A DNA stretch of 64,000 nt from an uncultured Nitrososphaerota archaeon (GTDB taxonomy: Archaea; Thermoproteota; Nitrososphaeria; Nitrososphaerales; Gagatemarchaeaceae): assembly GCA_963703285.1 (NCBI GenBank), contig OY969807.1:2176001-2240000 (forward strand), in the 5' to 3' direction. Shown in pieces: positions 808 to 57,569 of this stretch (position 1 is its first letter; the number at the start of each line of letters is the position of its first letter). A program made the translations under genes and the position numbers. The notes beneath the pieces were generated by a model, which worked only from the letters and a program-made list of their open reading frames with translations, ran no database searches and was not told where the DNA came from.

Positions 808-2947
808 TCATCTCGTCGCCTCTTCCTTGATCTTCCTCGCGACCGTTGGACCGATCTTCTCGACGCCCGCGAGCCTCTCCGCGCTAGCCTCCCTGATCGA
901 CTTCAGGGTGGTGAAGCCCGCCGAGTAGAGCGAGCGCGCCCTCGCCCTCCCGACGCCCTCGAGCTTCGTGAGCTCGACGAGCTCTCCCCTTATGCCGCTC
1001 TGGACCCGCTTCCGGAGGAACTCGGCCTCCTTGATCAGCTCGTGCTTACCGTAGAGCCTGGCCAGCTCCGAGAGGCAGTAGAGGAGCCAGTCCGCGTTCT
1101 CCACCGCCCGGTGGAGGTCCCCGGGCTCGACCCCGAGCTTCTCCAGTATAGCGTCGTCCCTCCACTCCTGTATCCACGAGTCGATCACCATGACCGTCCG
1201 CATCTCCTGGAGCAGGTCGTCGAGGTCGAGGCGAGACGAGGAGCCGCCCTCGGTGATGAAGGACCCCCGGTTGGCATCCAGGAACTCGTAGGCCTGGTCG
1301 TACTGCTTCTCGCGGAGGGGGAACTTCGGCTCGAAGTCGGGGCTCCTCGTGAACAGGTGTATCAGGCCCAGAGTGTGGTCCTCCGTCTTCTCGATGGCTC
1401 CCATGCTCTTCCTGAAGAGGACCCCGGTCATAGGGTCGATGTACAGCGTGGAGACCCTCTTCCCGAATCCGGTCGCATGGAAGACGCCGCTCTTGTCGAG
1501 GATGAGCCCCTCGCTGAGGAGGTACCCGAGCGCCGTGTCGATGTGCCTGCCCACCCTCTCGGCCCCCACCTGCGCCGCCAGCAGCGTCTTGGAGAAGAGG
1601 TCCTCGATCTGTGCCCTCGAGGACCCGAAGCTGCTCGCGATCGCCGCCAGGAGGTGTATCCGCATCCCCCTCTCCCCCCCAAGCCCCGACTCGATTGGCT
1701 CCGGCTCAGACTTGGTGAAGTGCTCGAGGACGTCCAACGGCACGTAGGTCGAGGGAGGGACGATCACCGCCTCGCCGTGGTCGTCGTACTGGGGCCGGCC
1801 CGCGCGCCCTGCCATCTGCCTGTACTCCAGGACCGATATCATCGAGTTCATCCCCGTCTCGACGTCGTAGCGCCCCAGGTCCGCGATGACGACCCTCCTC
1901 GCGGGGATGTTCACGCCCGCGGCAAGCGTGGGAGTGCTGGACAGGACCTTTATCGCCCTCAGCCTGTAGTAGTCCTCGATTATCTTCCTGTGCTCGTAGG
2001 CCAGGCCGGCGTGGTGGAAGGCCGAGCCCCTCTCGACTATCTCCGCCAGGAGCCTGCTCAGCCCGGTCTCCTCCCCGCTGTCGCGTATCCTCGACGCCGC
2101 CTCCCGGCAGAGGCCCCGCTCCGGCTCGCTCAGGAACCTCGAGGTAAGCTCAGATGCCTTTGTCGCCAGGCTCACAGCCCTCCGCCTCGTGCCCGCGAAG
2201 ATCAGCGACTGACCTCCTCCCTTCACGGAGTCTATCGCCACGTCGATGGGCGGCCCCTGGTTCGACCTGACGACGGGGACCTCGCTGTCCGGGTTGAAGA
2301 TTATCCTCCCGTAGTCGTAGACCCCCTCCCTGAGGGGGACGGGCCTCCAGTCCACAGCTACAAGGTCCGACCTGAGCCAACGCGCTATCTCGCCGGAGTT
2401 GCTTATGGTCGCCGAGAGCGATATGAGCTGGGCGCCGAGGCCGAGGTGGATCACCTTCGTCAGAATCATCTCGAGGGTGGGTCCCCTGTCGCCGCTCCCC
2501 GCGAGATGGACCTCGTCTGAGACGAAGAGGCCCACGGAACGAAGCCAGCTGACGCCGTGGCGTGAGGATCGAGTCGAACTTCTCGTTCGTGAGCACGAGG
2601 AAGTCGAACCTGCCCAGAGCCTCGCCGCTCCCGTCGAAGTCCCCCGTCGCTATGGCGCACCTTATCCCGAACCGCTCGAGCTTCTTGAACTCCGCGTACT
2701 TCTCGGAGGCTAGCGCCCGGAGGGGGCTGAGGTAGACGACCTTCCTCCCCTCCTTCAGCTTCTTGTAGGCGGCCATCATTGCGATGAGCGTCTTCCCCGA
2801 GGCCGTCGGGGACGCGATGACGAGGTTCTTCCCCTCCAGGAGCCCTGCCTTGACGGCGGCCTCCTGCGGCGGGTACAGCTCCCTGAACCCTTCCTCCGCC
2901 AGGAAGGCGGAGAACTCGCTGGGAAGGCCCAGGTCTTCGAAGTTCAT
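808..2947 (-). CDS. hel308: Ski2-like DNA helicase Hel308/Hjm (one apparent +1 error near 2562)
   Basis: ASPTASGKT, DEVH, FHHAGL, QMAGRAGRP and C-terminal HhH; two ORFs joined by removing one base (ATC CTC [A] CGC CAC). Confidence 0.92.
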
Positions 2948-2962
2948 GCGACCAGCCCGGTT

Positions 2963-5900
2963 CTAGGCTTGCACCCTTCTGTAGAACCCTGGCTTGTTCT
3001 CCCAGATTATCCCTTCCTTGATGAGCTTCTGAATCATGCTTGTCGACCTCGTCGTCGTTCTTGAACCTCCCGGTCTTGTTCAGCTCCTCCCTGAAGAGCT
3101 TGAGCTCCACCGGCTTCTTGTCCTGCCCCTCCATCGTCCTGAAGATGTCCATCGAGGTCGAGAGCTTCCCCCTCTCTCCGGCGGGCTGCCCTATCAGTAT
3201 CCCGAAGTCCGCCTTCGTCTTCGTCTCGGTGTCCGTGAGGACGTCCTCGACCATCCTGTTCATGAGCGAGATGGCCGTCGAGCGCGTCCTCCTCCAGGAC
3301 CAGCTCCCTGAGCATCAGCCTGGCCTTGGCGCTCGAGAGCCGGATGAGCGACTCTAGGGTCCTCGGCGTCGCGCCGATCTGCCCCTCGGCGACGCTCCTC
3401 CTGAGCTGGAGGTAGTACTCCTTCAGGCGGTTCTCCGCCTCCTTGGTGAGCGTCGGCGAGATCTTCTTCGCGTAGGCGATGTACTTCTTCATGAGGTCGA
3501 ACTGGACCGGGGGAGGCTCGCTGTAGCCCCTCCGCCTGTGGACGTCGAGTATGTGCGTTGCGAGCCTCTCGTCCTGGGCGGGGCTGGGGTTGTCCTTGAT
3601 CACGAAGATGAGGTCGAACCTGGTCAGCAGGGGGATGGGGAGCGTTACGTTGTCGGTGAGGTTCTTGTACGCATCGTACTTCCCGAAGATGGGGTTGGCG
3701 GCCGCAAGGATCGAGGTCCGCGCGTTGAGCGTGGCGTAGATCCCCCCCTTTGCTATGGTGACTGTGTTGTGCAGGATCACGCCAGCCGAGACGAAGTTGT
3801 GGCTCGGTTCGACCGTGACGTCGTACGTCCACTCGACCTTCTCGGGTCCGGAATTATCGACGCGTTCGATGCCTGTAACCCTGAGGAAACGCAGCCTCAT
3901 GAGACCATTTAGATGTGACATGATATCGACAGACTCGAACTGCATCCTGAGTGCCGCCCTGACTCTGGTCACGACGTTCCGCCTCTCCTCTCTTGTGTAG
4001 CCCCCACGCTCAGCATAGTCTATCGCCCCTCGCGGGATGCCCGCCAGGTCCGCCAGTCTCTGCTGCGACCATCCCGACGCTTTGCGCAGCTCCCGAAGAG
4101 AACATGTGCTCTCATCCAACTTATGAAGCACACTGATGCGTCTCCGCTCCAGCGATTGGAGGCGGTTCGCCATCACCAAGACGGTGATCCCATGCCCAGA
4201 CGACAAATGCCTGTGGAATTCTCCGTCGTATCGGAGACCGAGCTGCTTGAGGAGGGAGATGTACATCCTCGCTGCGTTCGCAGGCAATACGTCGTGCTTG
4301 CGATTGTGCCTCCCGCTCCTCTGTACGAGCCTGCTGATCGCGCCGTATCTAGGGTCCAGAGGATGCACCACCGTTGCGAAGAACTTCTCTAGGGAGTCCC
4401 CGGTTATGTAGACCTTGAAAGAATCGTTGGAGCGGTCGACGTTTATCCTCGATGCAACCCCGAGCTTTAGCAGAAGGTCCTGATAGTCCTCCGCCAGTCC
4501 CTGCGAAGCCGTCCTGTAGCAGACTGCTTCGGTCTCCACGCTACCGTCTCCGAGGAATGCCGAGGTCAGGAACTCGTTGATGTGCGCGACAGATGCTCCA
4601 AGTATCTTTGCGGGGGCCCTCTTCTGCCTAGCTTTGTGAACCATTTCCGGGAAGTTGAGCCGGAGCCACGCGTGAAGGGTTGTCGAGACGTATCGGAGGC
4701 CCGCGTCCCTGCCTTCCGACTTCCTGAGGGTCGGTTCAATCTTGAACTCGTCCCGCATCAACCCTCGCATCTCGTCGAGCAGCCGTAGATCAAGATTCGT
4801 GAAATCGACCTCCACCGAAGACCCCTCGTAGAAGTTCCCCTCCGAGATCAGGTATCCTAGGATCCTGGCAGTCCTGAGTGAGAGGGTCGAGGGCTGGGCT
4901 ATCTCCTTCCTTTGCGGCGTAGTGGCCTGTTCCGTAAGCTGCACGGGGAGCGAGGAGTTTGGAATCGACCTCGGGGCGGGGGCGAAATCTCCAACCTGCA
5001 GGTCCTCGGCCTTCACGGTGGCGATGCCGGCGTCGCGGTAGACGAACACGGGGTGTTCAGGCGTTACCAAGATGGACCTTCCGTTCGTGTAACTTATCCT
5101 CACGAAGTATCTTGGAGCCTTGTGCCGGCTGACGCAATCGATAGGCGTCTTTGCGATGCTTCCGTCGCTCAGGCTCGCAGAGAACAGCTGAACCGGGCGT
5201 CCAAGCCGTGCGACCTCACAGTACTGTCCCTTTACCGTCCTGGTATCCTTTTCACGGAGCGCGCCTTCGACGAAGTCACCTATCCTCACCTTCCTTCCAT
5301 CCGAGAGCAGAATCTCGGTGGAAGGGTGGTACGACTGCTGCTCCATCTGCTCATGGAGGGCGCTGCGGTCGTCCTCCTTCATCTTGTCAAATTCGTCTAT
5401 GCAGGCGATTCCTTGGTCCGCCAAGACCACCACTCCCGCCTCAAGCATGAACGTGTTCTTCTCGCGTATGACCGCCGCCGACAGACCCGCAGCCGTCGAA
5501 CCCTTGCCACTGGCGAACATCCCTCTCGGAGCGACCTGGGCTGCGAACTTCAGCATCTCCGACTTGGCCACGCCCGGGTCGCCGACGACGAAGACGTTGA
5601 TGTCACCCCTCAGCTTCGTCCCGTCAGGAAGTATGGTCTGCGGCCCTCCGACGAGGAGCAGCAGTATCGCCTCCTTCACCGCCTCGTGCCCGAGTATCGC
5701 CGGCGCGACCGACCTTATGAGCCTCTGGTAGGCGTCCGGGTTCGCGGCCACGCTCCTGATCAGGAACTCGTCCTCCTTCGTGATCTGGATCTGGCCTGGG
5801 TCCTTCCCAGCGACCTCGATGAGGTTGGCCTCGATCTTCGACCTGAAGACCCTCGTCCTCGCCTGCCCAGGCGTGATGTCGGGCTCCGCCCTTACTACGC

Positions 5901-9274: not shown

Positions 9275-10543
9275 ATGGACCTCTCCCTCCCCAGGGGCAT
9301 CCGAGATATAGACCCCGACGAGCACGAGCTCCACGACCGCATAAGGGCCGCCTTCGACGAGGTGGTGAGAGCCTACAACTTCAGGTCGATGGAACCCGCG
9401 CCGATCGAGACACTCTCGGTGCTGCGCGCCAAGAGCGGGACCCAGGTGGACGAGCAGATCTACCACTTCAAGGACAAAGCGGAGAGGGACATCGGCCTCA
9501 GGTTCGACCTCACGGTGGGGATGACGAGGTACGTTGCAGGGAAGAAGGGCCTCCGGCCCCCGGTCAAGCTCGCCTCCTACGGTGGGGTGTGGAGGTACGA
9601 CGAGCCGCAGCACGCCAGGTACCGGTGGTTCTACCAGTGGGACGTCGAGATCTTCGGCGACCCGACGACCGAGGCCGACGCCGAGGTGATGGACCTCTCC
9701 TACAACCTCTTCAAGAGGCTCGGCCTCGGGGATGTCACGCTCCACGTGGGCGACAGGAGGGTCGTCGAGGAGTACATCAGGAAGGCGCTCGGGGTCGCCT
9801 CTGAAGACCGCGCGCTCGAGATGATGAGGGCCCTGGACAAGGTGGGCAAGAAGACCGAGGAGGAGCTCATCCAGGAGTACGAGGCGAAGGGCGTGGGTCG
9901 CAGTGAGATGCGGGACCTCCTCGACTTCGGGAGGACGTCTGGGGAACCCGACGACGTCCTGGCTAGGCTCCAGGAGGACGGGCTCGAGTCAGCCGGCGGG
10001 CTGGCGGAGCTGAGGGACTCGCTCGCCCAGAGGAACGTCTCGAACGTGAGGTACGACCTGAGCATCGTCCGCGGCCTCGACTACTACACCGCGATCGTCT
10101 TCGAGGTGAAGGATGGTTCCCGCCCGGACCTAGGCTCGCTCTGCGGAGGGGGGCGGTTCGACGTCCTTCCGAGGATCTTCGGGAGGCCCGAGCTCTCCGC
10201 GACGGGCGCTGCGGGAGGCGTGGAGAGGATAGCTCTCTCCCTCGGCCCGAAGGTCGACCGTCCCCTCTCTGTCTACGTCGCCTACACCGAGCCCCAGCTC
10301 ATGAAGACCGCCCTCGGGGCCCTCGCGAAACTGAGGGAGGAAGGCATCAGGAGCGAGGTGGGGCCGCGTGGGAAGTCGCTCAGGAAGCAGCTCGAGGTGG
10401 CGGGCTCGTCCGGTTTCGACTGGGTCGTGCTCGTCGGCAGGAAGGAACTCGACTCAGGGAGCTTCCTCCTAAGGGATCTGAGGGACGGGAGGGAGATACT
10501 CGTCCCCGCTAAGGATTTCGTCTCGCACGTAAGAGCTAGATGA
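9275..10543 (+). CDS. hisS: Histidyl-tRNA synthetase
   Basis: PRGIRD, LRFDLT, VRGLDYYT, GGGRFD, anticodon domain. Confidence 0.96.
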   Translation: MDLSLPRGIRDIDPDEHELHDRIRAAFDEVVRAYNFRSMEPAPIETLSVLRAKSGTQVDEQIYHFKDKAERDIGLRFDLTVGMTRYVAGKKGLRPPVKLASYGGVWRYDEPQHARYRWFYQWDVEIFGDPTTEADAEVMDLSYNLFKRLGLGDVTLHVGDRRVVEEYIRKALGVASEDRALEMMRALDKVGKKTEEELIQEYEAKGVGRSEMRDLLDFGRTSGEPDDVLARLQEDGLESAGGLAELRDSLAQRNVSNVRYDLSIVRGLDYYTAIVFEVKDGSRPDLGSLCGGGRFDVLPRIFGRPELSATGAAGGVERIALSLGPKVDRPLSVYVAYTEPQLMKTALGALAKLREEGIRSEVGPRGKSLRKQLEVAGSSGFDWVVLVGRKELDSGSFLLRDLRDGREILVPAKDFVSHVRAR

Positions 10544-13500
10544 GGCTCTTCAGGGGCGACCTCACGCACATCAGGACCGCCTCGCCCTCCTCGGCTGTCG
10601 TCAGGAAGGGCACCTGCATCTCCACCGCCTTCCTCCTGACCTTGAAGAGGTCCTTCCTCATCCTCGAGAGGTTCGTGCTGAGGGAGATGACGAACGAAGC
10701 CTTGCCTCCCGAGAGCATGGAGACCATCTCGTCGACGGTCGACGCCCTGACCGCGCCGGGCTCCAACCCTGCAGCGAACGATTCCGTGCTCGCGAGCACT
10801 ATCCCCGCCTCCCGGAACCCTTCGACGAGGGACCGCATCTTGTCCGGGTCGGACTTCTCGTCGGCGAGGATTATGCCCGTCTCGCCCTTCTGAGGTATCC
10901 TCAGCCCGGCGGCTATGAGAGCCCTGCTCATGGCCTCCGGGAGGGTGTCCCCGAAGCAGGCGACCTCCCCCGTCGAGCGCATCTCGACGCCCACCGTCGG
11001 CTCGGCGCCCGCCATCTGCATGAACGAGAACTGGGGCGCCTTTACCGCGAACCCCTTTGGCTCGGGCGCGTCCTTCATCCCGGTGAGCTTCCCCCCGAGG
11101 AGCACGGGAGCGACGAGCTCGATCAGGTTCATCCCCGTCGCCTTGGAGACGAAGGGCATCGACCTGGAGGCCCTTAGGTTGCACTCGATAACCTGGACGT
11201 CGTCCTTGACGACGAGATACTGGATGTTGAACGGCCCCTTCACGCCGAGCTCCCGGGCGATGGATCGGCTGTAGTCCCTCATCCTCTCCTTGGCGACCTC
11301 GCCCACGGATACCGTTGGGATCGTCATGATGGCGTCCCCCGAGTGGACGCCCGCGTTCTCGACGTGCTCCATTATCGCGCCGATGACCGTCGTCTCACCG
11401 TCCGAGATTCCGTCGACCTCGACCTCCTTCGCATCCTCGATGAACTTGCTGACCGTCACGGGATAGTTGGGGTTCACCTCCACCGCCTTGGCGAGGAAGG
11501 TGTCGAGTTCCCGGGACCCCCAGATGACCCTCATCGCTGACCCGCTGAGGACGTGCGAGGGCCTCACTATCACGGGATACCCGACCTTCTCGCAGAAGTC
11601 CCTGGCCTGCTTCGTGGACCTGAAGCTCCCCCACCTGGGCTGCGGGATCCCGAGCTTGTCGAGGAGGAAGCCGAACCTCTCCCTGTCCTCCGCCCGCTCG
11701 ATCGAGTCCGCCGTCGTCCCCAGGATGCTGATCCCGTTCTGATCGAGCTCGAGTGCGAGGTCGTTGGGGATCTGGCCCCCAACGCAGAGGACCAGGCCCA
11801 TCGGCCGCTCCCTCTCGTAGATCGCCAGGAGCCTCTCGACCGTGAGCTCCTCGAAGTAGAGCCTGTCGCTCATGTCGAAGTCCGTCGAGACCGTCTCGGG
11901 GTTGCAGTTGACCACCACGACCTCGTCGACGCCGTTCGCCTTCAGCGCCCAGGCCATGTTCATCGTCCCCCAGTCGAACTCGACCGAGCTTCCGATCCTG
12001 TAGGGGCCCGCTCCGAGGACGACCACCTTCTCAGCGCCGGTCGGCTTGGCCTCGTCGACCGCGCCGTTGTGCGTCATGTAGAGGTAGTTGGTGCGCGCGG
12101 GCCACTCCGCCGCGAGCGTGTCTATCACCTTGGTGAATGGTCTGATGTCCATCCGCTCCCTGAGGGACCTGGCGTGCTCCTCGTCCATGCCGACGGCCGC
12201 GGCTATCTGCTTGTCAGAGAACCCCAGCTTCTTCGCCTCCAGGATCAGCTCCGGGTCCCTCTCCACCCCGTCCTTCCCACTCCTCGTTATCCGGCCGTGC
12301 ATGTCCACGATGTTCTTCAGCTTGCTCACGAACCAGGGGTCGATCACGGACAGCCTGCTCACCTCGTCCTCCGGCAAGCCGACCATGAGCGCCTCGACCA
12401 CGTCGAAGATGATCTGGTCGGTCGGGTTCCTCAGCCTCTCCTTCAGGACGGCGGTGTCGTCGGTCTCGACGAAGCGCCTTATGGCGCCGTCGTACCTAAT
12501 GTTGAGCATCCTAGCGGCCTTCTGGACCGCCTCCTCGAAGTTCCTGCCTATCGCCATCACCTCTCCGATGGACTTCATGGCGGTCCCGATGTTCCTCGAG
12601 GCGCCCTCGAACTTCTTCGTGTCCCACCTCGGCATCTTGACGACCACGTAGTCGAGCGAGGGTTCGAAGAGCGCCGTCGTCACCCCAGTGACCTTGTTCT
12701 TCAGCTCGTCGAGCGAATACCCGAGGCAGAGCTTGGCCGCGATGTACGCGATCGGATACCCGGTGGCCTTCGAGGCGAGGGCCGAGGACCTCGAGAGCCT
12801 GGCGTTGATCTCGATGGCGTTGTACCTCTCCGAGTTGGGCTCGAGCGCGAACTGCATGTTGCACTCTCCGAGCACGCCGCACCTCGCCGCGGCCTTGAGC
12901 GAGAGCGACCGGAGCATGTGGTACTCCCTGTTGGTTATCGTCAGCGAGGGGGCGACCACTATGTTGTCCCCCGTGTGGACCCTCATGGAGAGGACGTTCT
13001 CCATGTTGCAGACGACCATGCTGTTCTCCTTCCTGTCCCTCATCACCTCGTACTCGATCTGCTTCCAGTGCCCGATGTACTCCTCGATGAGGACCTGGTG
13101 CGCGAGGCTCAGGTTGAGCCCCCGCTGGACGATGTCGGCCAGCTCCTTCTCGTTCCGGGCCACGCCCCCTCCCCTCCCGCCTAGCGTGTACGCGACCCTC
13201 ATGATGACCGGGTACCCTATCTCCTTGACTATCCTCCGGGCGTCTTCGAGCGAGTATGCCGGCTTGCTCCTCGGGACGGAGATCCCAACGTCCTGCATGG
13301 CCTCCTTGAATAGCTCCCTGTCCTCGGTGATGTCGATCCCCGAGATTGGCGTCCCCAGGACCCTCATGCCGTACTTCTCGAGGGTGCCCCTCCTGGCCAG
13401 GCCGACGCCGCAGTTCAGGGCGGTCTGCCCGCCGAACCCCAGCAAGATCGCGTCGGGCCTCTCCTTCTCTATCACCGCGGAGACGAAGTCTGGGTTGACG

Positions 13501-13706
13501 GGGAGGAAGTAGATCTTGTCCGCCATCCGCGGGTCGGTCTGGATGGTCGCGATGTTCGGGTTGACGAGCACGGAACGGACGCCCTCCTCCCTGAGGGCCT
13601 TGAGGCACTGGCTGCCGGAGTAGTCGAATTGGCGGCCGCTTTAGCGGCTCTCGCCGGCTTCTCCGATCTTGATTGCCCCGCTGCCCAGAACTATCGCTTT
13701 CTTCAC
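10536..13706 (-). CDS. carB: Carbamoyl-phosphate synthase large subunit, interrupted by a 21-nt candidate intron (13629-13649)
   Basis: N-terminus VKKAIVLGSGAIKIGEAGE|FDYSGSQCLKAL in frame with ORF 10536-13571; two ATP-grasp halves; GTG start overlaps the corrected carA stop (GTGA). Confidence 0.95.
13629..13649 (-). other. Candidate archaeal BHB/BHL-type mRNA intron in carB
   Basis: mRNA GGCG-AG^A-GCCGC-UAAA-GCGGC-CGCC-AA^U: 4-bp central helix, 3-nt bulge, 5-bp intron hairpin, in-frame UAA; excision gives GAG|UUC = E-F. Confidence 0.8.
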
Positions 13707-14873
13707 GCTCTCATGGTTCGAACTTTCTCACCTACCAACTTCCTGTCCTCCATGAGCGAGGCAAACCTGTCGAAGACGAACTCGCGCGTCGTAGGGGCCC
13801 GGTGAAGCCTCAGGGTGGAACTGGACCGTGATGCAGGGCTTGTTGAGGTGAATCAGCCCCTCGATGGACTTGTCGTCGGCGTTCACGAACCACGTCTTCA
13901 GGTCCGTCTTCGCGAGGCTCTCCCCGTCGACCGAGTACCCGTGGTTCTCGCTGGCCACGAACCCCTTGCCCGAGTCGAGGTCGACGATCGGCTTGTTCTG
14001 CCCCCTGTGACCGTACTTGAGCTTGTAGGTGGTTGCTCCCTGTGAGATCGCCACCAGCTGCTGCCCTAGGCAGATTCCCAGGGTCGGCATCCCCGATTCG
14101 ACGAGCCTCGCCGTCGTCGCTATGGTGTCCGAGCAGAGCACGGGGTCGCCCGGCCCGTTGCTGACGACGACGCCTGCCGGGTCGTGCCTCATCACGTCGG
14201 CGTAGGAGTAGTCGTACGGGGCCCTGACGACGCTGTATCCCCTGAGGAGGAGGTTGCGTATTATGCTCAGCTTCGTCCCGCAGTCCAGCAGGACGACCCT
14301 CCTCTCCGAGTCCCCGTAGACCTGGGCCCTCCTCGGGGAGACCTTCCTCACGAAATCGATAGAGCCGTACTTCGTCGACTGCTTAAGGAGCCTCATCAGC
14401 TCTGCCTTCGAGGAGAGCTCCACGCCGTTTGCCAGGACACCCATCATGACCCCCCTCTCCCTCAGCTTCGTGACGAGGGCCCGCGTGTCGATATCGCTAA
14501 TCCCCGGGATCCCCTCGCTGCGCATCCACTCCGAGATGTTGCGCTTCGAGTCCCAGTGGTTCGGGCGTTCGCAGTACTCCTGGACCACTATCCCGCTGAC
14601 CTTGATCGATTCCGATTCGAACTGCCTCGGCATGCCCATGAGGTCGAGGTCCTTCATGCTCGGGACGCCATAGTTTCCTATCAGCGGAAATGTGAACGTC
14701 AGGACCTGGCCCGCGTAGGAAGGGTCGGTCATCGACTCCGGATATCCGACCATCCCCGTGGTGAAGACAACCTCCGCGACACTCGTCGTCTCTGCCCCGA
14801 ACCCCCTCCCGAGGAAGAGTGAGCCATCCTCGAGAAGAAGGACGGCCGGGTTGCTCCCCTCAGTTTTGTCCAT
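13703..14873 (-). CDS. carA: Carbamoyl-phosphate synthase small subunit (apparent +1 error near 13784)
   Basis: GEVVF-like AEVVFTTGMVGY, SNGPGDP, GICLG, QFHPEASPGP. Confidence 0.96.
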
Positions 14874-28838: not shown

Positions 28839-30296
28839 ATGCCAGTTCCTCCGCAGACGAAGCAGATTTCAGAGGTAGTATGGGAGATTCCCCCAACCTA
28901 CAAGGAGGGAATGAACGTCCCGGCGCGGATCTATGCTACGAAGAAGCTACTCGGGGGTATGGACCAGGGCGTCATAGAGCAGGTCACGAACGTCGCATCC
29001 CTTCCGGGTATTCAGCGCTACTCCTACGCGATGGCCGACGCGCACTGGGGGTATGGGTTCCCGATAGGAGGAGTCGCCGCCTTCGACCCAGAAGTTGGAA
29101 TTATTTCGCCTGGAGGGATTGGTTTCGATATAAATTGCGGTATGCGCCTGATCCGCACGAACCTGAGGTTCAAGGAGGTCCAGCCCAAGGTCAGGGAGCT
29201 CGTCGACCTCCTCTTCCAGCTCGTCCCGACCGGGGTGGGCGTCAAGGGGTTCGTGAAGGTGAACCAGAACTCCTTCGAGGAGGTCATGAGGTGGGGCGTC
29301 AAGTGGTGCGGCGAGAACGGATACGGGTGGGAAGAGGACGCGCGGATGGTCGAGGAGGGAGGGTTCCTCAAGGGCGCCGACCCTTCCACGGTCAGCAGGC
29401 AGGCCTCGAGCCGCGGCATCTCCCAGCTCGGGACGCTGGGGTCGGGGAACCACTACCTGGAGATACAGGTCGTCGACCCGGGCCGTTTCTTTGACGCCAA
29501 GATGGCCAAGAACTTCGGCCTGGTGTATGAGGACCAGGTTGTCGTCATGATTCACTGCGGGTCGAGGGGGTTCGGCCACCAGATCGGCTCGGACTACCTT
29601 AGGGTCTTCGACGGCGCGATGAAGCGCTATGGCATCACCGTGAGGGACAGGGAGCTCGCGTGCGCCCCGTTCGCTTCCAAGGAGGGCCGTGACTACTACG
29701 GCGCGATGGCCTGCGCGGCAAACATGGCCTTCGCCAACCGCCAGGTGATAGTGCACCGGGTTAGGGAGGCGTTCCAGAAGGTCTTCCGCCGCGACCCGGA
29801 GGCGCTTGACATGCACATAATCTACGACGTCTGCCACAACATCGCCAAGGTGGAGAGGCACGCCCTCGACGGCGCGACCAGGGAGCTCGTCGTCCACAGG
29901 AAGGGGGCGACCAGGTCGTTCGGTCCGGGGCACCCAGACATCCCCGCGCACTACCGTCAGATCGGCCAGCCGGTAATCATCGGCGGCTCGATGGAGACGG
30001 GGTCGTACCTGCTCCTCGGGACGGCCAAGGCCATGACGGACACCTTCGGGTCGACCGCCCACGGCTCGGGGAGGACCATGTCCAGGACGGCCGCCAGGAG
30101 GGAGGTGAGCGGCGAGGCCCTGCAGAAGTCGATGGAGAAGAAGGGCATCTACGTGAAGGCGGCCACCTACGATGGGCTCGCCGAGGAGGCCGGGATGGCC
30201 TACAAGGACATCTCGGAGGTCGTGGAGACGATGCACACGGCCGGGATATCGCTCAAGGTCGCCGCCCTGCGACCCATAGGGAACATCAAGGGTTAG
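28839..30296 (+). CDS. rtcB: RNA-splicing ligase RtcB
   Basis: DAHWGYGFPIGG, GFDINCG, GSGNHY, HCGSRG, HNIAK, HRKGAT, HGSGR. Confidence 0.98.
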   Translation: MPVPPQTKQISEVVWEIPPTYKEGMNVPARIYATKKLLGGMDQGVIEQVTNVASLPGIQRYSYAMADAHWGYGFPIGGVAAFDPEVGIISPGGIGFDINCGMRLIRTNLRFKEVQPKVRELVDLLFQLVPTGVGVKGFVKVNQNSFEEVMRWGVKWCGENGYGWEEDARMVEEGGFLKGADPSTVSRQASSRGISQLGTLGSGNHYLEIQVVDPGRFFDAKMAKNFGLVYEDQVVVMIHCGSRGFGHQIGSDYLRVFDGAMKRYGITVRDRELACAPFASKEGRDYYGAMACAANMAFANRQVIVHRVREAFQKVFRRDPEALDMHIIYDVCHNIAKVERHALDGATRELVVHRKGATRSFGPGHPDIPAHYRQIGQPVIIGGSMETGSYLLLGTAKAMTDTFGSTAHGSGRTMSRTAARREVSGEALQKSMEKKGIYVKAATYDGLAEEAGMAYKDISEVVETMHTAGISLKVAALRPIGNIKG

Positions 30297-52943: not shown

Positions 52944-53380
52944 GGCTGGGCACTCCCGATGATCCTCTCGTAGAAGTCCGCCGGCGGTCCCTTCATCATG
53001 AAGCTCCGTGGCTTGACACGCACCCTCACCGGGTCGCTCGACGAGAACGATGCGACGCCGGTCACCAGCGTCTGCTTGTTGAGCCTGATGTAGAGAGCGC
53101 CGTGTTCGTCGATGCATGCCCCGAGCTCCCTTTCGAGTTCCCTTCTCCCGTCCCTCCCCAGGAGGGAGATGAGGGCCTGGAAGGACGTCCACGCCTCCTC
53201 CCCCGTCACGCGCCACCTGAGGCTCGCCATCCTGTTCCCGAAGTGCCCCTCGAGGACCTCCTCCTCCGGTTGCTGCTCGATGCGAAGGGCGCGCATGATG
53301 GAGTCGCTGAGCTTGGTCTCATCCTCGGTCGCCTGCACAAAGCAGGAGACCTCCAGGGACTGTATCTCTCGCTGCGCCAC
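52940..53380 (-). CDS. DUF54-family RNA-binding protein
   Basis: QATEDE.K, EGHFGN, LYIRLNKQ. Confidence 0.8.
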   Translation of the reverse strand: MAQREIQSLEVSCFVQATEDETKLSDSIMRALRIEQQPEEEVLEGHFGNRMASLRWRVTGEEAWTSFQALISLLGRDGRRELERELGACIDEHGALYIRLNKQTLVTGVASFSSSDPVRVRVKPRSFMMKGPPADFYERIIGSAQP

Positions 53381-53460
53381 CCCGCTCTCGAACTCGCGGC
53401 CGGCAGCTCCGTTGATAACTTTATCAGCCCTCGGCCTTCGCGGGACCGAAGGAAAGTGTC

Positions 53461-54465
53461 GTGAGGGGCAATCTCTGCGTCTTGGGGATCGAGAGCACCG
53501 CCCACACCTTCTCGGCCTCGGTCGCGACCGAGGGGGAGGGTCTCCTCAGCGACGTGAAGGACGTCTACGTCCCTCCCGAGGGCAGCGGGATCCACCCGAC
53601 CGAGGCGGCAAAGCATCATGCGGCCGTCGGAGCGAGGGTCATCGGGGACGCAATCGCCGCCTCCGGGGTGAAGGCGGGGAGGATAGACGCCGTGGCCTAC
53701 TCCATGGGTCCCGGTCTGGGTCCCTGCCTCAGGGTGGGCGCGGTCTCGGCGCGGGCCATGGCCCTGGCACTGGGGAAGCCCCTTGTGCCGGTCAACCACG
53801 CCGTTGGTCACATCGAGCTCGGCTGCATGCTCACGGGCGCCAAATCGCCTCTGGTCCTCCTGATATCCGGCGGCCATACCATGGTCCTCTCGTGCTCGTC
53901 CGGCATGTGGCGGGTGCTGGGCGAAACGCTGGATCTCACCCTCGGACAGCTGCTCGACCAGCTCGGAAGGCACTTCGGCTACTCCTCGCCCTGCGGGAGG
54001 CGGATAGAGGAGGCAGCCTCTCGCTCTAGCAGATACGTCAGGCTTCCCTACACGGTCAAGGGGAACGACGTCTCGTTCTCGGGGCTGCTCACGGCAGCGA
54101 AGAGGCTCGTCGATGGAGGGGTCCCGTTCGAGGACGTCTGCTTCTCGGTCCAGGAGAGCGCCTTCGCCACCACAGTCGAGGTGACAGAGAGGGCGCTCGC
54201 CTTCACAGGCTGCGAGGAGGTCATGGTCGTTGGCGGGGTTGCCGCGAACAGGAGGCTCGCCGAGATGCTCGACATCATGGTTCGAAGGCACTCCGCCCGG
54301 CTGAGGGTTGTTCCCCTGCGCTACAGCGGCGACTGCGGTGCGCAGATCGCTTGGACGGGGCTGCTCGCCTTTCGATCGGGGACGACCGTGCCCCTCGAGA
54401 AGAGCATAATCAGGCAGTCCTGGCGGCTCGACACCGTCCCCCTCCCCTGGAGGTCTGACCCGTGA
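53461..54465 (+). CDS. kae1: KEOPS t6A threonylcarbamoyltransferase Kae1
   Basis: GIESTAHT, GPGL, NHAVGHIE, SGGHT, GGVAAN. Confidence 0.95.
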   Translation: MRGNLCVLGIESTAHTFSASVATEGEGLLSDVKDVYVPPEGSGIHPTEAAKHHAAVGARVIGDAIAASGVKAGRIDAVAYSMGPGLGPCLRVGAVSARAMALALGKPLVPVNHAVGHIELGCMLTGAKSPLVLLISGGHTMVLSCSSGMWRVLGETLDLTLGQLLDQLGRHFGYSSPCGRRIEEAASRSSRYVRLPYTVKGNDVSFSGLLTAAKRLVDGGVPFEDVCFSVQESAFATTVEVTERALAFTGCEEVMVVGGVAANRRLAEMLDIMVRRHSARLRVVPLRYSGDCGAQIAWTGLLAFRSGTTVPLEKSIIRQSWRLDTVPLPWRSDP

Positions 54466-55088
54466 GGCTCGTCTACAGGGGCGCGGAGGCCGACATCTAC
54501 TCGGGAGAGTGGACCGGACAGGGGGCCATCTTCAAGTTCAGAAAGCCGCTCCCCTACAGGCATCCCGAGCTCGACGCGGAGATCCGCGCGCAGCGCACGG
54601 TCCGGGAGGCCCAGATGATCGGCGACGCCAAGCGCGCCGGGGTGCGGGCGCCGTACCTCTTCTATGTCTCCCAAGAGGAGTCCCTGATCGTGATGCAGGA
54701 GATACAGGGCCCCAGGCTCAAGTCGGTTCTGGCGTCGGGGCGTGATGGGGAAGAGGTATCGACCGAGTTCGGCGTCGCTGTGGGGAGGCTCCACCGCGGA
54801 GGGATAATGCACGGCGACCTCACCACCTCGAACGTGCTCGTGAACCAATCGGGGGTGCACCTGATCGACTTCGGGCTGTCGGTTCATTCGTCGAGCGTGG
54901 AGGATCACGCCGTTGACCTGAGGCTCATCAAGGAGACGCTCGTCGGCGCCCACTCCGAGATAGCCTCCGCGGTCCTGGGTTCCTTCATGCGCGGCTACGC
55001 GAGCGAGGTCGGGGTCCCCAGGGCGAGGACGGTCGGAAAGAAGCTGGTCGAGATCGAGAGGAGGGGGAGGTATGCGAGGGTCGAGTAG
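54462..55088 (+). CDS. bud32: KEOPS kinase Bud32
   Basis: GAEA, HGDLTTSN, IDFGL, RGRY. Confidence 0.95.
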   Translation: MRLVYRGAEADIYSGEWTGQGAIFKFRKPLPYRHPELDAEIRAQRTVREAQMIGDAKRAGVRAPYLFYVSQEESLIVMQEIQGPRLKSVLASGRDGEEVSTEFGVAVGRLHRGGIMHGDLTTSNVLVNQSGVHLIDFGLSVHSSSVEDHAVDLRLIKETLVGAHSEIASAVLGSFMRGYASEVGVPRARTVGKKLVEIERRGRYARVE

Positions 55089-55650
55089 GTCGGTCACGTT
55101 CGCGACCTCCAACGCGGGCAAGGTCCGCGAGGCGCGCGCCGTCCTCTCTCCCCTCGGTATCGAGGTGGTTGCCTTCGACGGCAAGGGCGAGGAGATACAG
55201 TCGGATACGGTCTCCGAGGTCGCGGCCTACTCCGCGCGTGCGGCCTCACGGAGGTACGGCCGCCCGCTCTTTGTGGAGGACGCGGGCCTCTTCGTCGAGG
55301 CCCTCGGAGGCTTCCCCGGACCGTCGTCCTCCTACGTCTTCCGGACGATCGGCATCCGGGGGCTGCTCTCGCTCCTCGAGGACCGCAGTTCGAGGCGCGC
55401 GTGCTTCAGGAGCGCGGTCGCATACTGCGACCCAGCGAGAGAGCCCCGGGTCTTCGAGGGGATGGTCAGGGGCGGGATCCTGAGGTCCCCCGTCGGAGCC
55501 AACGGCTTTGGGTTCGACCCCGTCTTCGTCCCCTCCCGCGCCCGAAGGTCCTTCGGAGAGCTCACCCTCGAGGAGAAGTGCGCAGTCTCACACAGGGGGG
55601 AGTCGCTCAGGAGGTTCGCCGCGTGGTACTCGGCCCGCCGGCCTGGGTAA
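55072..55650 (+). CDS. rdgB: Non-canonical purine NTP pyrophosphatase (RdgB/HAM1)
   Basis: ATSNAGK, EDAGL, GFGFDPVF, SHRG. Confidence 0.93.
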   Translation: MRGSSRSVTFATSNAGKVREARAVLSPLGIEVVAFDGKGEEIQSDTVSEVAAYSARAASRRYGRPLFVEDAGLFVEALGGFPGPSSSYVFRTIGIRGLLSLLEDRSSRRACFRSAVAYCDPAREPRVFEGMVRGGILRSPVGANGFGFDPVFVPSRARRSFGELTLEEKCAVSHRGESLRRFAAWYSARRPG

Positions 55651-55693
55651 CGGTTTTAAACAGGCCGCGCTCGGAGTCGCTTCGGTTTTAGAA

Positions 55694-56143
55694 TTGGCGA
55701 GGATACATTCCCATCGGCATGGGAAGAGCCACCAGACCAGGCCGACGAGCAAGAGGCCCCCGAGCTGGCTCACCTACAGCCCCGATGAGGTAAGCTCCAT
55801 GACGATAAAGATGGGCAAGGAGGGGCTTACGCCCAGTCAGATAGGTGTGAGGCTGAGGGACGAATACGGCATTCCCCTCGTGAAGCCGATAATCGGCAAG
55901 TCGATCTCTACGCTTCTGAGGGAGAACAAGCTCGCGCCCGCGATCCCCGAGGACCTCCAGAACCTCCTCGAGAGGGCCAAGCGCGTCCAGCTACACCTCT
56001 CCACCTTCAAGTCGGACAGGAGGAACGTCCGCTCGCTGGAGCTGATAGAGGCCAAGATCTACAGACTCTCGAAGCACTACAAGAAGGTGGGGCTCCTGCC
56101 GAGCGACTTCAAGTACGCGGCCGTTGTAGCTCAGCTGACATAG
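55694..56143 (+). CDS. rps15: 30S ribosomal protein S15 (uS15/S13e)
   Basis: (M)ARIHSHRHGKS, SQIGVRLRDEYGIP, IPEDL; TTG start. Confidence 0.95.
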   Translation: MARIHSHRHGKSHQTRPTSKRPPSWLTYSPDEVSSMTIKMGKEGLTPSQIGVRLRDEYGIPLVKPIIGKSISTLLRENKLAPAIPEDLQNLLERAKRVQLHLSTFKSDRRNVRSLELIEAKIYRLSKHYKKVGLLPSDFKYAAVVAQLT

Positions 56144-56162
56144 GCCAGGTCCGGCATCGGGC

Positions 56163-57569
56163 ATGCCCGACCTTGAAGCTCTTAGGGAAAGGATGTCGGA
56201 GGCGTCTCGGCTCCTCATCGGTCTGTCCAAGCAGAGAAAGCGGATAGTCGTCGTGACCCACATCGACGCCGACGGCCTTTCGGCCGGGGCAGTCGCCTTC
56301 GACGCACTCGCGAGGACGGGCGCTATCGCCTCGGTCAGGGCTATCCCCGACCTCGACCCCCGGGCGATTGGCGAACTCAAGGACGCAGGGTTCGACTTCT
56401 ACCTCTTCACGGACCTGGGGTCCGGGCTGGTCGACCAGCTGTCGCAAGCGCTTGGCGACGACTTCCTGATCGTCGATCACCACCAGATGCCACCCGAATA
56501 CTACCGTCACCCCAACGTCGTGAACGCATGGGCCTACGGGTACGACGGCGGGACCGAAGCTAGCTCCTCGACGATGGCGTACATGCTCGCGCTCTCCATC
56601 GACGAGAAGAACACGGACCTCTCGACCAACGCGGTCATCGGCGCGGTGGGGGACAGGCAGGACAGGGGGCCTGGGCGCTCTCTCACGGGTCTCAACAGGA
56701 AGGCCCTGGAGGACGGCGTGAAGGACGGTCTGATAGGCGTCTCCAAGGACTTCCTCTTCCACGGACGGGAGACGAGGCCTATCCACGAGGCGATCGCCCT
56801 CACCTACACACCATACCTCAACGGTCTCTCCGGCGCCAAGGACGCGTGCCTCGCGGTCCTCTCCAACTCGGGGTTCGCCCTCAAGGAGCACGGGCGCTGG
56901 CGCAACCTCTCCGAGCTCTCCGCCGAGGAGAAGCAGAAGCTGCTGGAGGTCCTGACGAGCTTCGTTGGGTCCGGCGCCGGCGGTTCGGCCGTCATCTCCG
57001 AGATAATAGGCGAGATCTACCTCCTTCGGGAAGAGGACCCCCTGACACCCCTGCGCGACGCGCGCGAGTTCGCCACCCTGATGAACGCGTGCGGCAGGAT
57101 GGACGCCACAGGCGTCGGGATTGCCATCGGGCTTGGCGACAGGGACGGGGCCCTCTCCGAAGCGCTGAGGCTTGTCGTCGAATACCGCGTGAAGATCAAC
57201 AAGGCCCTCCAGATGCTGCAGACGTCGAACGAGATGGTCTCCACGCACGGCCACGTCGCCGTCGTCAGGGGCGACGAGTTCATAGAGGAGCGGATGACCG
57301 GCTCGATATCCTCGCTCCTGGCTTCATCTGAGAAGTACAAGGACAAGATGGTCCTCGCGTGCGCCAGGTCCGGCGAGCTCGAACTCAAGTACTCCTCGAG
57401 GCTCGGAGACTCGTTCCCGAAGGACGTCAACCTCGGCGTCATAATGAAGGAGGCCGCGGAGCTCGTCGGCGGTGTCGGGGGCGGCCACAGCAGGGCCGCG
57501 GGGGCGAAAATCCTGATAACGAGGAGAGACGAGTTCACGAGCGCCGTCCTGGAGAGGTTCTCGGAGTGA
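56163..57569 (+). CDS. RecJ-like DHH phosphoesterase
   Basis: HIDADG, TDLG, DHH, NACGR, GGGH..AAG. Confidence 0.92.
   Translation: MPDLEALRERMSEASRLLIGLSKQRKRIVVVTHIDADGLSAGAVAFDALARTGAIASVRAIPDLDPRAIGELKDAGFDFYLFTDLGSGLVDQLSQALGDDFLIVDHHQMPPEYYRHPNVVNAWAYGYDGGTEASSSTMAYMLALSIDEKNTDLSTNAVIGAVGDRQDRGPGRSLTGLNRKALEDGVKDGLIGVSKDFLFHGRETRPIHEAIALTYTPYLNGLSGAKDACLAVLSNSGFALKEHGRWRNLSELSAEEKQKLLEVLTSFVGSGAGGSAVISEIIGEIYLLREEDPLTPLRDAREFATLMNACGRMDATGVGIAIGLGDRDGALSEALRLVVEYRVKINKALQMLQTSNEMVSTHGHVAVVRGDEFIEERMTGSISSLLASSEKYKDKMVLACARSGELELKYSSRLGDSFPKDVNLGVIMKEAAELVGGVGGGHSRAAGAKILITRRDEFTSAVLERFSE

Follow-up and report, generated by a model that had tools for sequence, protein, structure and literature searches.

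The closest described counterpart of the element reported here is the bulge-helix-bulge (BHB) intron of cbf5 in Desulfurococcales and Sulfolobales (Watanabe 2002; Yoshinari 2006; Yokobori 2009, PMC2738675), a short coding-sequence intron with a relaxed motif whose splicing has been demonstrated experimentally. The lineages that carry it have a hetero-oligomeric splicing endonuclease, and it has been gained or lost among close relatives (PMC2738675). The same paper gives confirmed splicing for no gene but cbf5 and counts no cbf5 introns in Cenarchaeum symbiosum and Nitrosopumilus maritimus. PMC7714728 names only cbf5 as reported besides its own case, the BHB element of Haloferax volcanii HVO_1309, and within the reference list of PMC12397907 (2025) mRNA introns are cited by the cbf5 papers only. 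Noncanonical tRNA introns of Crenarchaeota and Thaumarchaeota, with bulge-helix-loop (BHL) or HBh' motifs, offer a second comparison. Here, we analyze a 64,000-nucleotide stretch (the window) of contig OY969807.1 from an uncultured Nitrososphaerota archaeon (assembly GCA_963703285.1), in which carB, the gene for the large subunit of carbamoyl-phosphate synthase, is interrupted by 21 nucleotides (nt) that include an in-frame stop codon. With a probability of about 0.88, we suggest that these 21 nt are an endonuclease-type (BHB) intron in the carB pre-mRNA.

Like the cbf5 intron, the carB insert is short, lies within a coding sequence, has a relaxed motif and is present or absent among close relatives. 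Unlike cbf5, which encodes an RNA-modification enzyme in Crenarchaeota, carB encodes a metabolic enzyme in Nitrososphaerales, and its splicing is something that we infer from sequence. The cbf5 gene of the source genome is itself uninterrupted, with its TruB_N matches in one 351-codon open frame without stops. In HVO_1309 the splicing endonuclease acts on an mRNA, but in the 5' untranslated region (PMC7714728), whereas the carB element lies in the coding sequence. With the noncanonical tRNA introns, carB shares the presumed (alpha-beta)2 endonuclease and the relaxed motif class, and the tRNA introns of 12 to 40 nt predicted in the source genome are comparable in size; unlike in those cases, the substrate would be an mRNA, and the cuts would have to keep the reading frame.

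The carB gene is on the minus strand (coordinates are given in Table 1). Exon 1 ends in GGA GAA GCC GGC GAG, with its last G at 13650; the insert (A GCCGC TAAA GCGGC CGCC AA, 13649 to 13629) carries an in-frame TAA; and exon 2, beginning TTC GAC TAC TCC GGC at 13628, stays open for 1030 codons, to 10536. An earlier interpretation made from the letters of this DNA (the sequence-only reading) had described a break of 21 nt with an in-frame TAA that splits GEAGE|FDYSG at these positions, and its coordinates and wording are correct. It had also held that unspliced mRNA would yield a 21-residue peptide only, and the frame from the probable start, GTG 13706, indeed gives 19 CarB residues and Ser-Arg before the stop. 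Exon 2 matches TIGR01369 (CPSaseII_lrg) with 1328.9 bits; as this match starts at profile position 25, exactly at the junction, the missing N-terminal residues are those from exon 1. There is one copy of carB in the source genome (a single contig of 2.25 Mb), the next best match being an ATP-grasp fragment with 31% identity, so that an intact second carB, which the sequence-only reading had named as a finding that would speak against an intron, was not found in this genome.

We compared carB loci from 40 relatives and a further 80 from public genomes, and both flanking motifs were found in 102 of 110 loci. An insert occupies the same Glu|Phe boundary in 90 of the 102 and is absent in 12. The 90 loci represent 62 distinct sequences and 54 distinct inserts of 17 to 52 nt. 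Within the genus of the source organism, the insert is at the same place in all 16 loci that reach the site (two further loci end before it), and in five genomes from other families of the order there is no insert and GEAGEFDYSG runs uninterrupted. In none of the 62 distinct sequences with an insert does the reading frame continue across it (in 34 the insert length is a multiple of three but there is an in-frame stop, 24 have other lengths with a stop, and 4 are pure frameshifts), and the insert must therefore be removed if CarB is to be made. A change of the genetic code by which TAA is read as sense, or a simple insertion of seven residues, was rejected because 26 of the 54 distinct inserts are not multiples of three. 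Across relatives, exon 2 is open over approximately 1030 codons, and the exon 1 peptide is identical between insert-bearing and intronless species within one genus. As judged from these sequences, the gene is under selection, which indicates that CarB is made despite the insert.

It is conceivable that the insert is retained and that CarB is translated from an internal start downstream, being functional without its first 19 to 38 residues or so, with the upstream frame as a leftover; a 1011-codon open reading frame (ORF) beginning at GTG 13571, downstream of the insert, would permit this. We consider such a scenario highly improbable, since the 19 codons of exon 1 are intact and protein-identical while synonymous sites vary, the CarB profile match begins precisely at the junction, and intronless relatives continue uninterrupted through the motif. 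It would also leave unexplained why the geometry of hairpin and helix is conserved, with compensatory changes and in an exact register, as described below.

The RNA geometry was examined with the junction fixed from the protein alone (Glu|Phe), by testing whether exon positions -6 to -3 pair with intron positions -6 to -3 and whether a hairpin stands beside a 3-nt bulge. In 61 of the 62 distinct sequences, at least three of the four central-helix pairs form and a hairpin of at least 3 bp adjoins the 3-nt bulge, and the same geometry occurs in 0 of 62 at each of ten shifted registers. The central helix has all four pairs in 39 sequences and three of four in 23. Reading frame and RNA shape, as independent lines of evidence, thus indicate the same two bonds.

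Covariation was assessed in an alignment of the 29 distinct sequences with 21-nt inserts, with 500 shuffles and slid alignments as controls. Standard pairs make up 91.7% of cells, compared with 85.2% after shuffling (none of the 500 shuffles is as high) and 18 to 54% in the slid controls (maximum, 54.2%). Within the intron hairpin, 95.2% of cells pair and four of the five pairs show changes on both sides, examples being a pair that is U-A in 14 sequences and C-G in 12 and another that is A-U in 15 and G-C in 13. RNAalifold, run without a supplied structure, recovered this hairpin, the outer helix and, from the central helix, a core of 3 bp; in all 29 sequences, it paired the initial G of GGCG to the second exon 2 base. 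The Gly-Glu codons hold the central helix almost constant; GGCG/CGCC is replaced by GGTG/CACC in one relative (L026) and by GGTG/CACT in another (G025), and a third (L021, with the Gly codon GGT) has a U-G pair. These comparisons supply what the sequence-only reading had proposed as a check, the alignment of carB 5' ends among relatives: homologous inserts at the same site keep the helix and bulge geometry and show compensatory changes.

The exon bases that would take part in pairing appear constrained as well. Of the 62 insert-bearing sequences, 60 have GGC and 2 have GGT as the Gly codon of the central helix, whereas 10 distinct intronless sequences use GGG (4), GGT (2), GGC (2) and GGA (2). 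Within genus g23, we compared 9 insert-bearing with 11 intronless genomes whose peptides around the site are identical (L243 to L262). Third-position G+C in insert-bearing versus intronless alleles is 1.0 versus 0.27 at codon -6; 1.0, 1.0 and 0.89 versus 0.27, 0.18 and 0.27 at codons -3, -2 and -1; and 1.0, 1.0 and 1.0 versus 0.0, 0.18 and 0.09 at codons +2, +3 and +4, the third positions of which are the pairing bases of the outer helix (alignment columns 51, 54 and 57). The G/C excess of the insert-bearing alleles extends to about codon +13, past the predicted outer helix, and the model leaves this unexplained; it could reflect a longer structure or a conversion tract that arrived with the intron.

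In the source genome, a minimum-free-energy fold of 71 nt around the insert (with 200 shuffles as a control) contains the 4-bp helix GGCG/CGCC, a 3-nt AGA bulge, the hairpin GCCGC-UAAA-GCGGC and a 5-nt 3' loop, AAUUC. The fold that the sequence-only reading had drawn is thus upheld for the helix, the bulge and the hairpin but not for GAA/UUC in the exon strands, which pair as CGGAG/CUCCG, AG/CU and one C-G. The 5' half of the motif has the features of the canonical hBHBh' form, namely, a 4-bp central helix between the bulges (GGCG/CGCC here, with the pair counts given above among relatives) and a 3-nt bulge at the 5' splice site (AGA) that is closed by an intronic helix h', the 5-bp hairpin. 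For the 3' side of this form, PMC7714728 specifies that an exonic helix h, with no fewer than 2 Watson-Crick pairs, immediately closes a 3-nt bulge. The carB motif is relaxed (HBh'/BHL-like), canonical in its 5' half and not in its 3' half, because no exonic helix directly closes a 3-nt 3' bulge; that the exon side is relaxed had been anticipated, and both the single-sequence fold and RNAalifold bear it out.

The archaeal splicing endonuclease cuts after the second nucleotide of each bulge. Applied to carB, this rule gives GAG|TTC, the sequence of the intronless relatives, and the earlier proposal that cuts at AG^A and AA^U would remove 21 nt and restore Glu-Phe in frame agrees with the geometry and with those relatives. 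A one-base symmetric shift of both cuts likewise yields Glu-Phe, as read from the sequence. In the mechanism we propose, exon 1 GGCG, which precedes the final AG of the Glu codon, would pair with intron CGCC to form the central helix. The 5' splice site AG|A would then lie in the 3-nt bulge between the central helix and the intron hairpin, and the 3' splice site AA|U would lie in a bulge or loop of 3 to 5 nt that is closed a few bases outward by the exon-exon helix. An (alpha-beta)2-type endonuclease would cut both sites, and RtcB would join the exons to give GAG|UUC, from which full-length CarB could be translated. In this scheme, cleavage, ligation and the exact cut positions are what we infer, starting from the observed sequence, geometry, covariation, need for removal and enzyme genes.

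The enzymes that such a mechanism would require are encoded in the source genome. Two of its genes contain both tRNA-intron endonuclease domains (EndA paralogues L003 and L004); by our reading of the sequences, L003 has the Tyr/His/Lys catalytic pattern and L004 is without the His. L003 aligns over its full length with the alpha subunits 2cv8_A, 3p1z_B and 2zyz_B (E = 2e-41 to 8e-37), which we take to belong to the heterotetrameric enzymes of Sulfolobus tokodaii, Aeropyrum pernix and Pyrobaculum aerophilum, respectively. In the specificity loop, K44 and R46 of A. pernix face Lys and Lys in L003. RtcB is the archaeal splicing ligase, and its gene is intact and lies within the window. According to PMC3241643, the specificity loop of EndA, and K44 especially, confers cleavage of noncanonical BHB and BHL substrates, and such enzymes have been tested on a BHL mini-helix from C. 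symbiosum pre-tRNA-Tyr. PMC7714728 describes the (alpha-beta)2 form, which occurs mostly in TACK archaea, as accepting BHB motifs of various bulge lengths. A host for a relaxed motif would need a broad-specificity EndA, of the (alpha-beta)2 or epsilon2 form, and an RNA ligase, and the two EndA paralogues and the intact RtcB of this genome provide both. ARAGORN in intron mode predicted introns in 29 of the 41 tRNA genes of the genome, several of 12 to 20 nt, and called no tRNA gene within the window. Some of the predicted introns are implausibly long (781 to 2998 nt) and may hide inserted genes or be false calls.

The noncanonical 3' side leaves some room for the insert to be removed from RNA without EndA and RtcB, for instance by a different nuclease or a self-cleaving element, but we regard this, too, as having only a slim chance of being correct. 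At 17 to 52 nt, the inserts are far below the hundreds of nucleotides of a group I or group II ribozyme core, and a search of the 64-kb window against Rfam at gathering thresholds gave no match. Moreover, 61 of 62 sequences show a geometry that follows the EndA rule, and the host's enzyme is of the broad-specificity type.

In phage T4 gene 60, ribosomes hop over a gap in which a stop codon and a hairpin closely follow the take-off point. The carB insert has a stop codon and a hairpin in the corresponding place, and translational bypassing of the insert may be considered by analogy. It appears very improbable, given that matching codons for take-off and landing are absent (GAR precedes the insert, and the last intron triplet varies among CAA, CAG, TAA, TAG, AAA, AAG, CAT and others), that the gap would range over the full span of insert lengths, and that the conserved features fit a BHB motif instead.

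Several observations weigh against an endonuclease-type intron and temper our confidence in it. The energy of the single-sequence fold is unremarkable (z = -1.43; 18 of 200 shuffles are equally stable), and the case for the carB motif consequently rests on the comparison among relatives. The 3' side departs from the canonical form, being a 5-nt loop in both the single-sequence fold and RNAalifold, with an exon-exon helix that begins a few bases further out rather than closing a 3-nt bulge through at least 2 Watson-Crick pairs. A G-A mismatch takes the place of the outermost central-helix pair in 23 of the 62 distinct sequences. There is very little variation in the exon helices, so pairing there is not fully separable from coding constraint, and the compared genomes are related, so the shuffle statistics overstate independence. 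In g23, finally, the background third-position G+C is also higher in genomes with the insert (about 0.43 versus 0.25 over codons +14 to +40, a by-eye estimate).

Table 1. Features of the carB locus and the rtcB gene in the 64,000-nt window (position 1 is the first nucleotide of the window)
Feature	Position	Strand	Description and basis
21-nt intron (putative)	13629..13649	-	5'-bulge third nt (A), hairpin GCCGC-UAAA-GCGGC, central-helix 3' strand CGCC, first two nt of the 3' bulge (AA)
carB exon 1	13650..13706	-	19 codons, GTG 13706-13704 (presumed start) to GAG 13652-13650; peptide conserved in relatives with and without the insert
carB exon 2	10536..13628	-	1030 codons plus stop; TIGR01369 match
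Relaxed bulge-helix-bulge motif, whole	13616..13665	-	Single-sequence fold, pair counts, RNAalifold
Outer exon-exon helix	13661-13665 with 13616-13620	-	
Central helix	13652-13655 with 13631-13634	-	
5' bulge	13649-13651	-	
Intron hairpin	13635-13648	-	
3' bulge or loop	starts at 13630	-	
carA (small subunit), directly upstream of carB	13728..14873	-	TIGR01368, 408.6 bits
rtcB, presumed exon-joining ligase	28839..30296	+	485 aa; PF01139, 565.6 bits; no internal stops

The distribution of the insert was examined in 401 genomes drawn evenly from the class Nitrososphaeria, with inserts counted at 12 to 60 nt. The motif was found in either state in 326 genomes and the insert in 231; these tallies include five unpublished genomes (G267, G169, G361, G319 and G399), all with the insert, and become 321 and 226 of 396 without them. 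A reversed motif pattern, used as a control, had no match anywhere in the class sample. Expressed as genomes with the insert, with the motif and scored, and with the source genome not counted, the counts are 150/221/223 in family f12 and 70/75/78 in f15, which are presumably Nitrosopumilaceae and Nitrososphaeraceae, respectively, judging from the record titles of carriers; 3/8/11 in f1; 4/4/4 in f4; 1/1/1 in each of f13 and f2; 0/6/10 in f9; 0/3/4 in f14; and 1/1/9 in f18, which belongs to another order. Both states occur within five genera (insert-bearing genomes: g23, 22 of 83; g45, 18 of 24; g31, 3 of 8; g20, 2 of 9; g27, 4 of 5), and other genera are uniform for the insert (g35, 32 of 32; g25, 16 of 16; g17, 15 of 15). 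Carriers among the matches listed include “Ca. Nitrosotenuis chungbukensis” MY2 (NZ_CP130341.1), “Ca. Nitrosopumilus salarius” BD31 and Nitrosopumilus sp. b1, together with metagenome-assembled genomes labeled Cenarchaeum, Nitrosotalea, Nitrosarchaeum, Nitrosocosmicus, Nitrosopelagicus and Nitrosomirales. The carB intron looks old, mostly vertically inherited and lost many times. An assembly or sequencing artifact, or a carB pseudogene, is made almost untenable by this distribution over many assemblies (NZ_CP130341.1 included) and by a single carB with exon 2 intact over 1030 codons, even though single-base frameshifts exist in other genes of the source genome.

Some records in these samples stand apart. 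Two genomes (G345 and G425) have two insert-bearing carB motif matches each, which could represent two carB copies or mixed bins, and a 2.5-kb contig labeled Candidatus Heimdallarchaeota (L158, JALUTL010000388.1) carries a thaumarchaeal-type carB insert and is probably misbinned. A metagenome probe that combined the exon-exon junction with the G/C-rich codons of intron-bearing alleles, with no insert, found 16 contigs (L265 to L280), several of them long (39 to 377 kb). None comes close to identity with a carrier of the locus set (81% over 258 nt at best), and many are of other lineages; one (L278) resembles the family of the source genome, and four resemble Nitrosopumilaceae. Most simply, these contigs are intronless alleles and not transcripts, with no bearing on splicing, and they may be recent precise losses of the intron.

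The sequence-only reading had raised the possibility of wider mRNA introns in this lineage. We scanned the source genome for BHB cores that, once removed, leave two open, coding-like frames joined, a scan of low power whose filter against spanning ORFs also discards carB itself. It returned 56,137 raw candidates, compared with 52,968 to 56,303 with shifted cut sites, and hence no enrichment; under a tight-hairpin model, carB ranked third of 53 candidates. No second mRNA intron was found in the genome by this low-power scan, which gave no support to the suggestion. One candidate, at 2506 to 2527 (-) of the window, lies in a gene for a Hel308-like helicase and was rejected because the real break is a 1-nt frameshift approximately 45 nt upstream. 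A second, at genome positions 486310 to 486334 (-), lies in a DNA ligase gene whose real break is a frameshift after the residues GLAL; a third, at 420947 to 420968 (-), has no family match and lies in a low-complexity frame. The helicase gene (2350 to 2962 [-]; DEAD, Helicase_C, archaeal helicase domain 4 and HHH) has an apparent single-base frameshift near 2560, one frame ending in NEKFDSIL and the next continuing RHGVSWLRSVGLFVSDEVH, which probably reflects an indel in the assembly rather than an intron. In the ATP-dependent DNA ligase gene (L263, positions 486000 to 488200 of the contig), the frame is lost at about 486300 to 486340 (-), approximately 13 positions short of where the C-terminal domain model ends, by an apparent single-base indel at a G run. 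Apart from carB, the broken genes that were checked in this genome are single-base frameshifts.

Upstream of carB, the carA stop is 21 nt ahead of the carB start, which leaves no room for another gene in between. In 100 of 103 loci, the carA C terminus was found no more than 305 nt from the insertion site; L102 has it too, and the flanks of the remaining two loci are too short to show it. A free-standing LAGLIDADG gene beside carB was not found, in that none of the 14 LAGLIDADG_3 matches in the source genome adjoins it. Seven of these matches are inside very long frames (929 to 1680 codons), which suggests inteins, and one of these seven lies in the window at 4372 to 4578 (-). The other seven are in short frames of 185 to 332 codons, three of them within about 200 nt of tRNA-Cys (221581), tRNA-Gln (859505) and tRNA-Ser (1312220). 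As a tentative and rather doubtful idea, tRNA-type mini-introns may have entered repeatedly, in distant archaeal phyla, at the carB Glu|Phe boundary of GE-FDYSG, seeded by homing endonucleases that recognize this highly conserved coding DNA, with the intron shielding its allele from cutting; in Nitrososphaerales, the endonuclease gene would have been lost and the intron fixed as a passenger, and the synthesis of arginine and pyrimidines in many ammonia-oxidizing archaea would depend on the tRNA-splicing machinery. If an endonuclease did bring the carB intron, its gene is gone from the carB locus. No function of the intron beyond being tolerated is evident in this analysis, which yielded nothing for or against the post-transcriptional switch that the sequence-only reading had considered.

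A search of the published literature, with subscription journals and supplements outside its reach, found no carB intron and no mRNA intron in Thaumarchaeota. After cbf5, carB would be the second archaeal coding-sequence host gene for such an intron, one that is present in many ammonia-oxidizing archaea and has apparently gone unreported. The switches between presence and absence within genera g23, g45, g31, g20 and g27 provide a natural system for studying intron loss, and because the carriers include named strains and enrichments, splicing can be tested directly. Standard gene callers will report such carB genes as truncated or broken, from which arginine or pyrimidine auxotrophy could be wrongly inferred in metabolic reconstructions.

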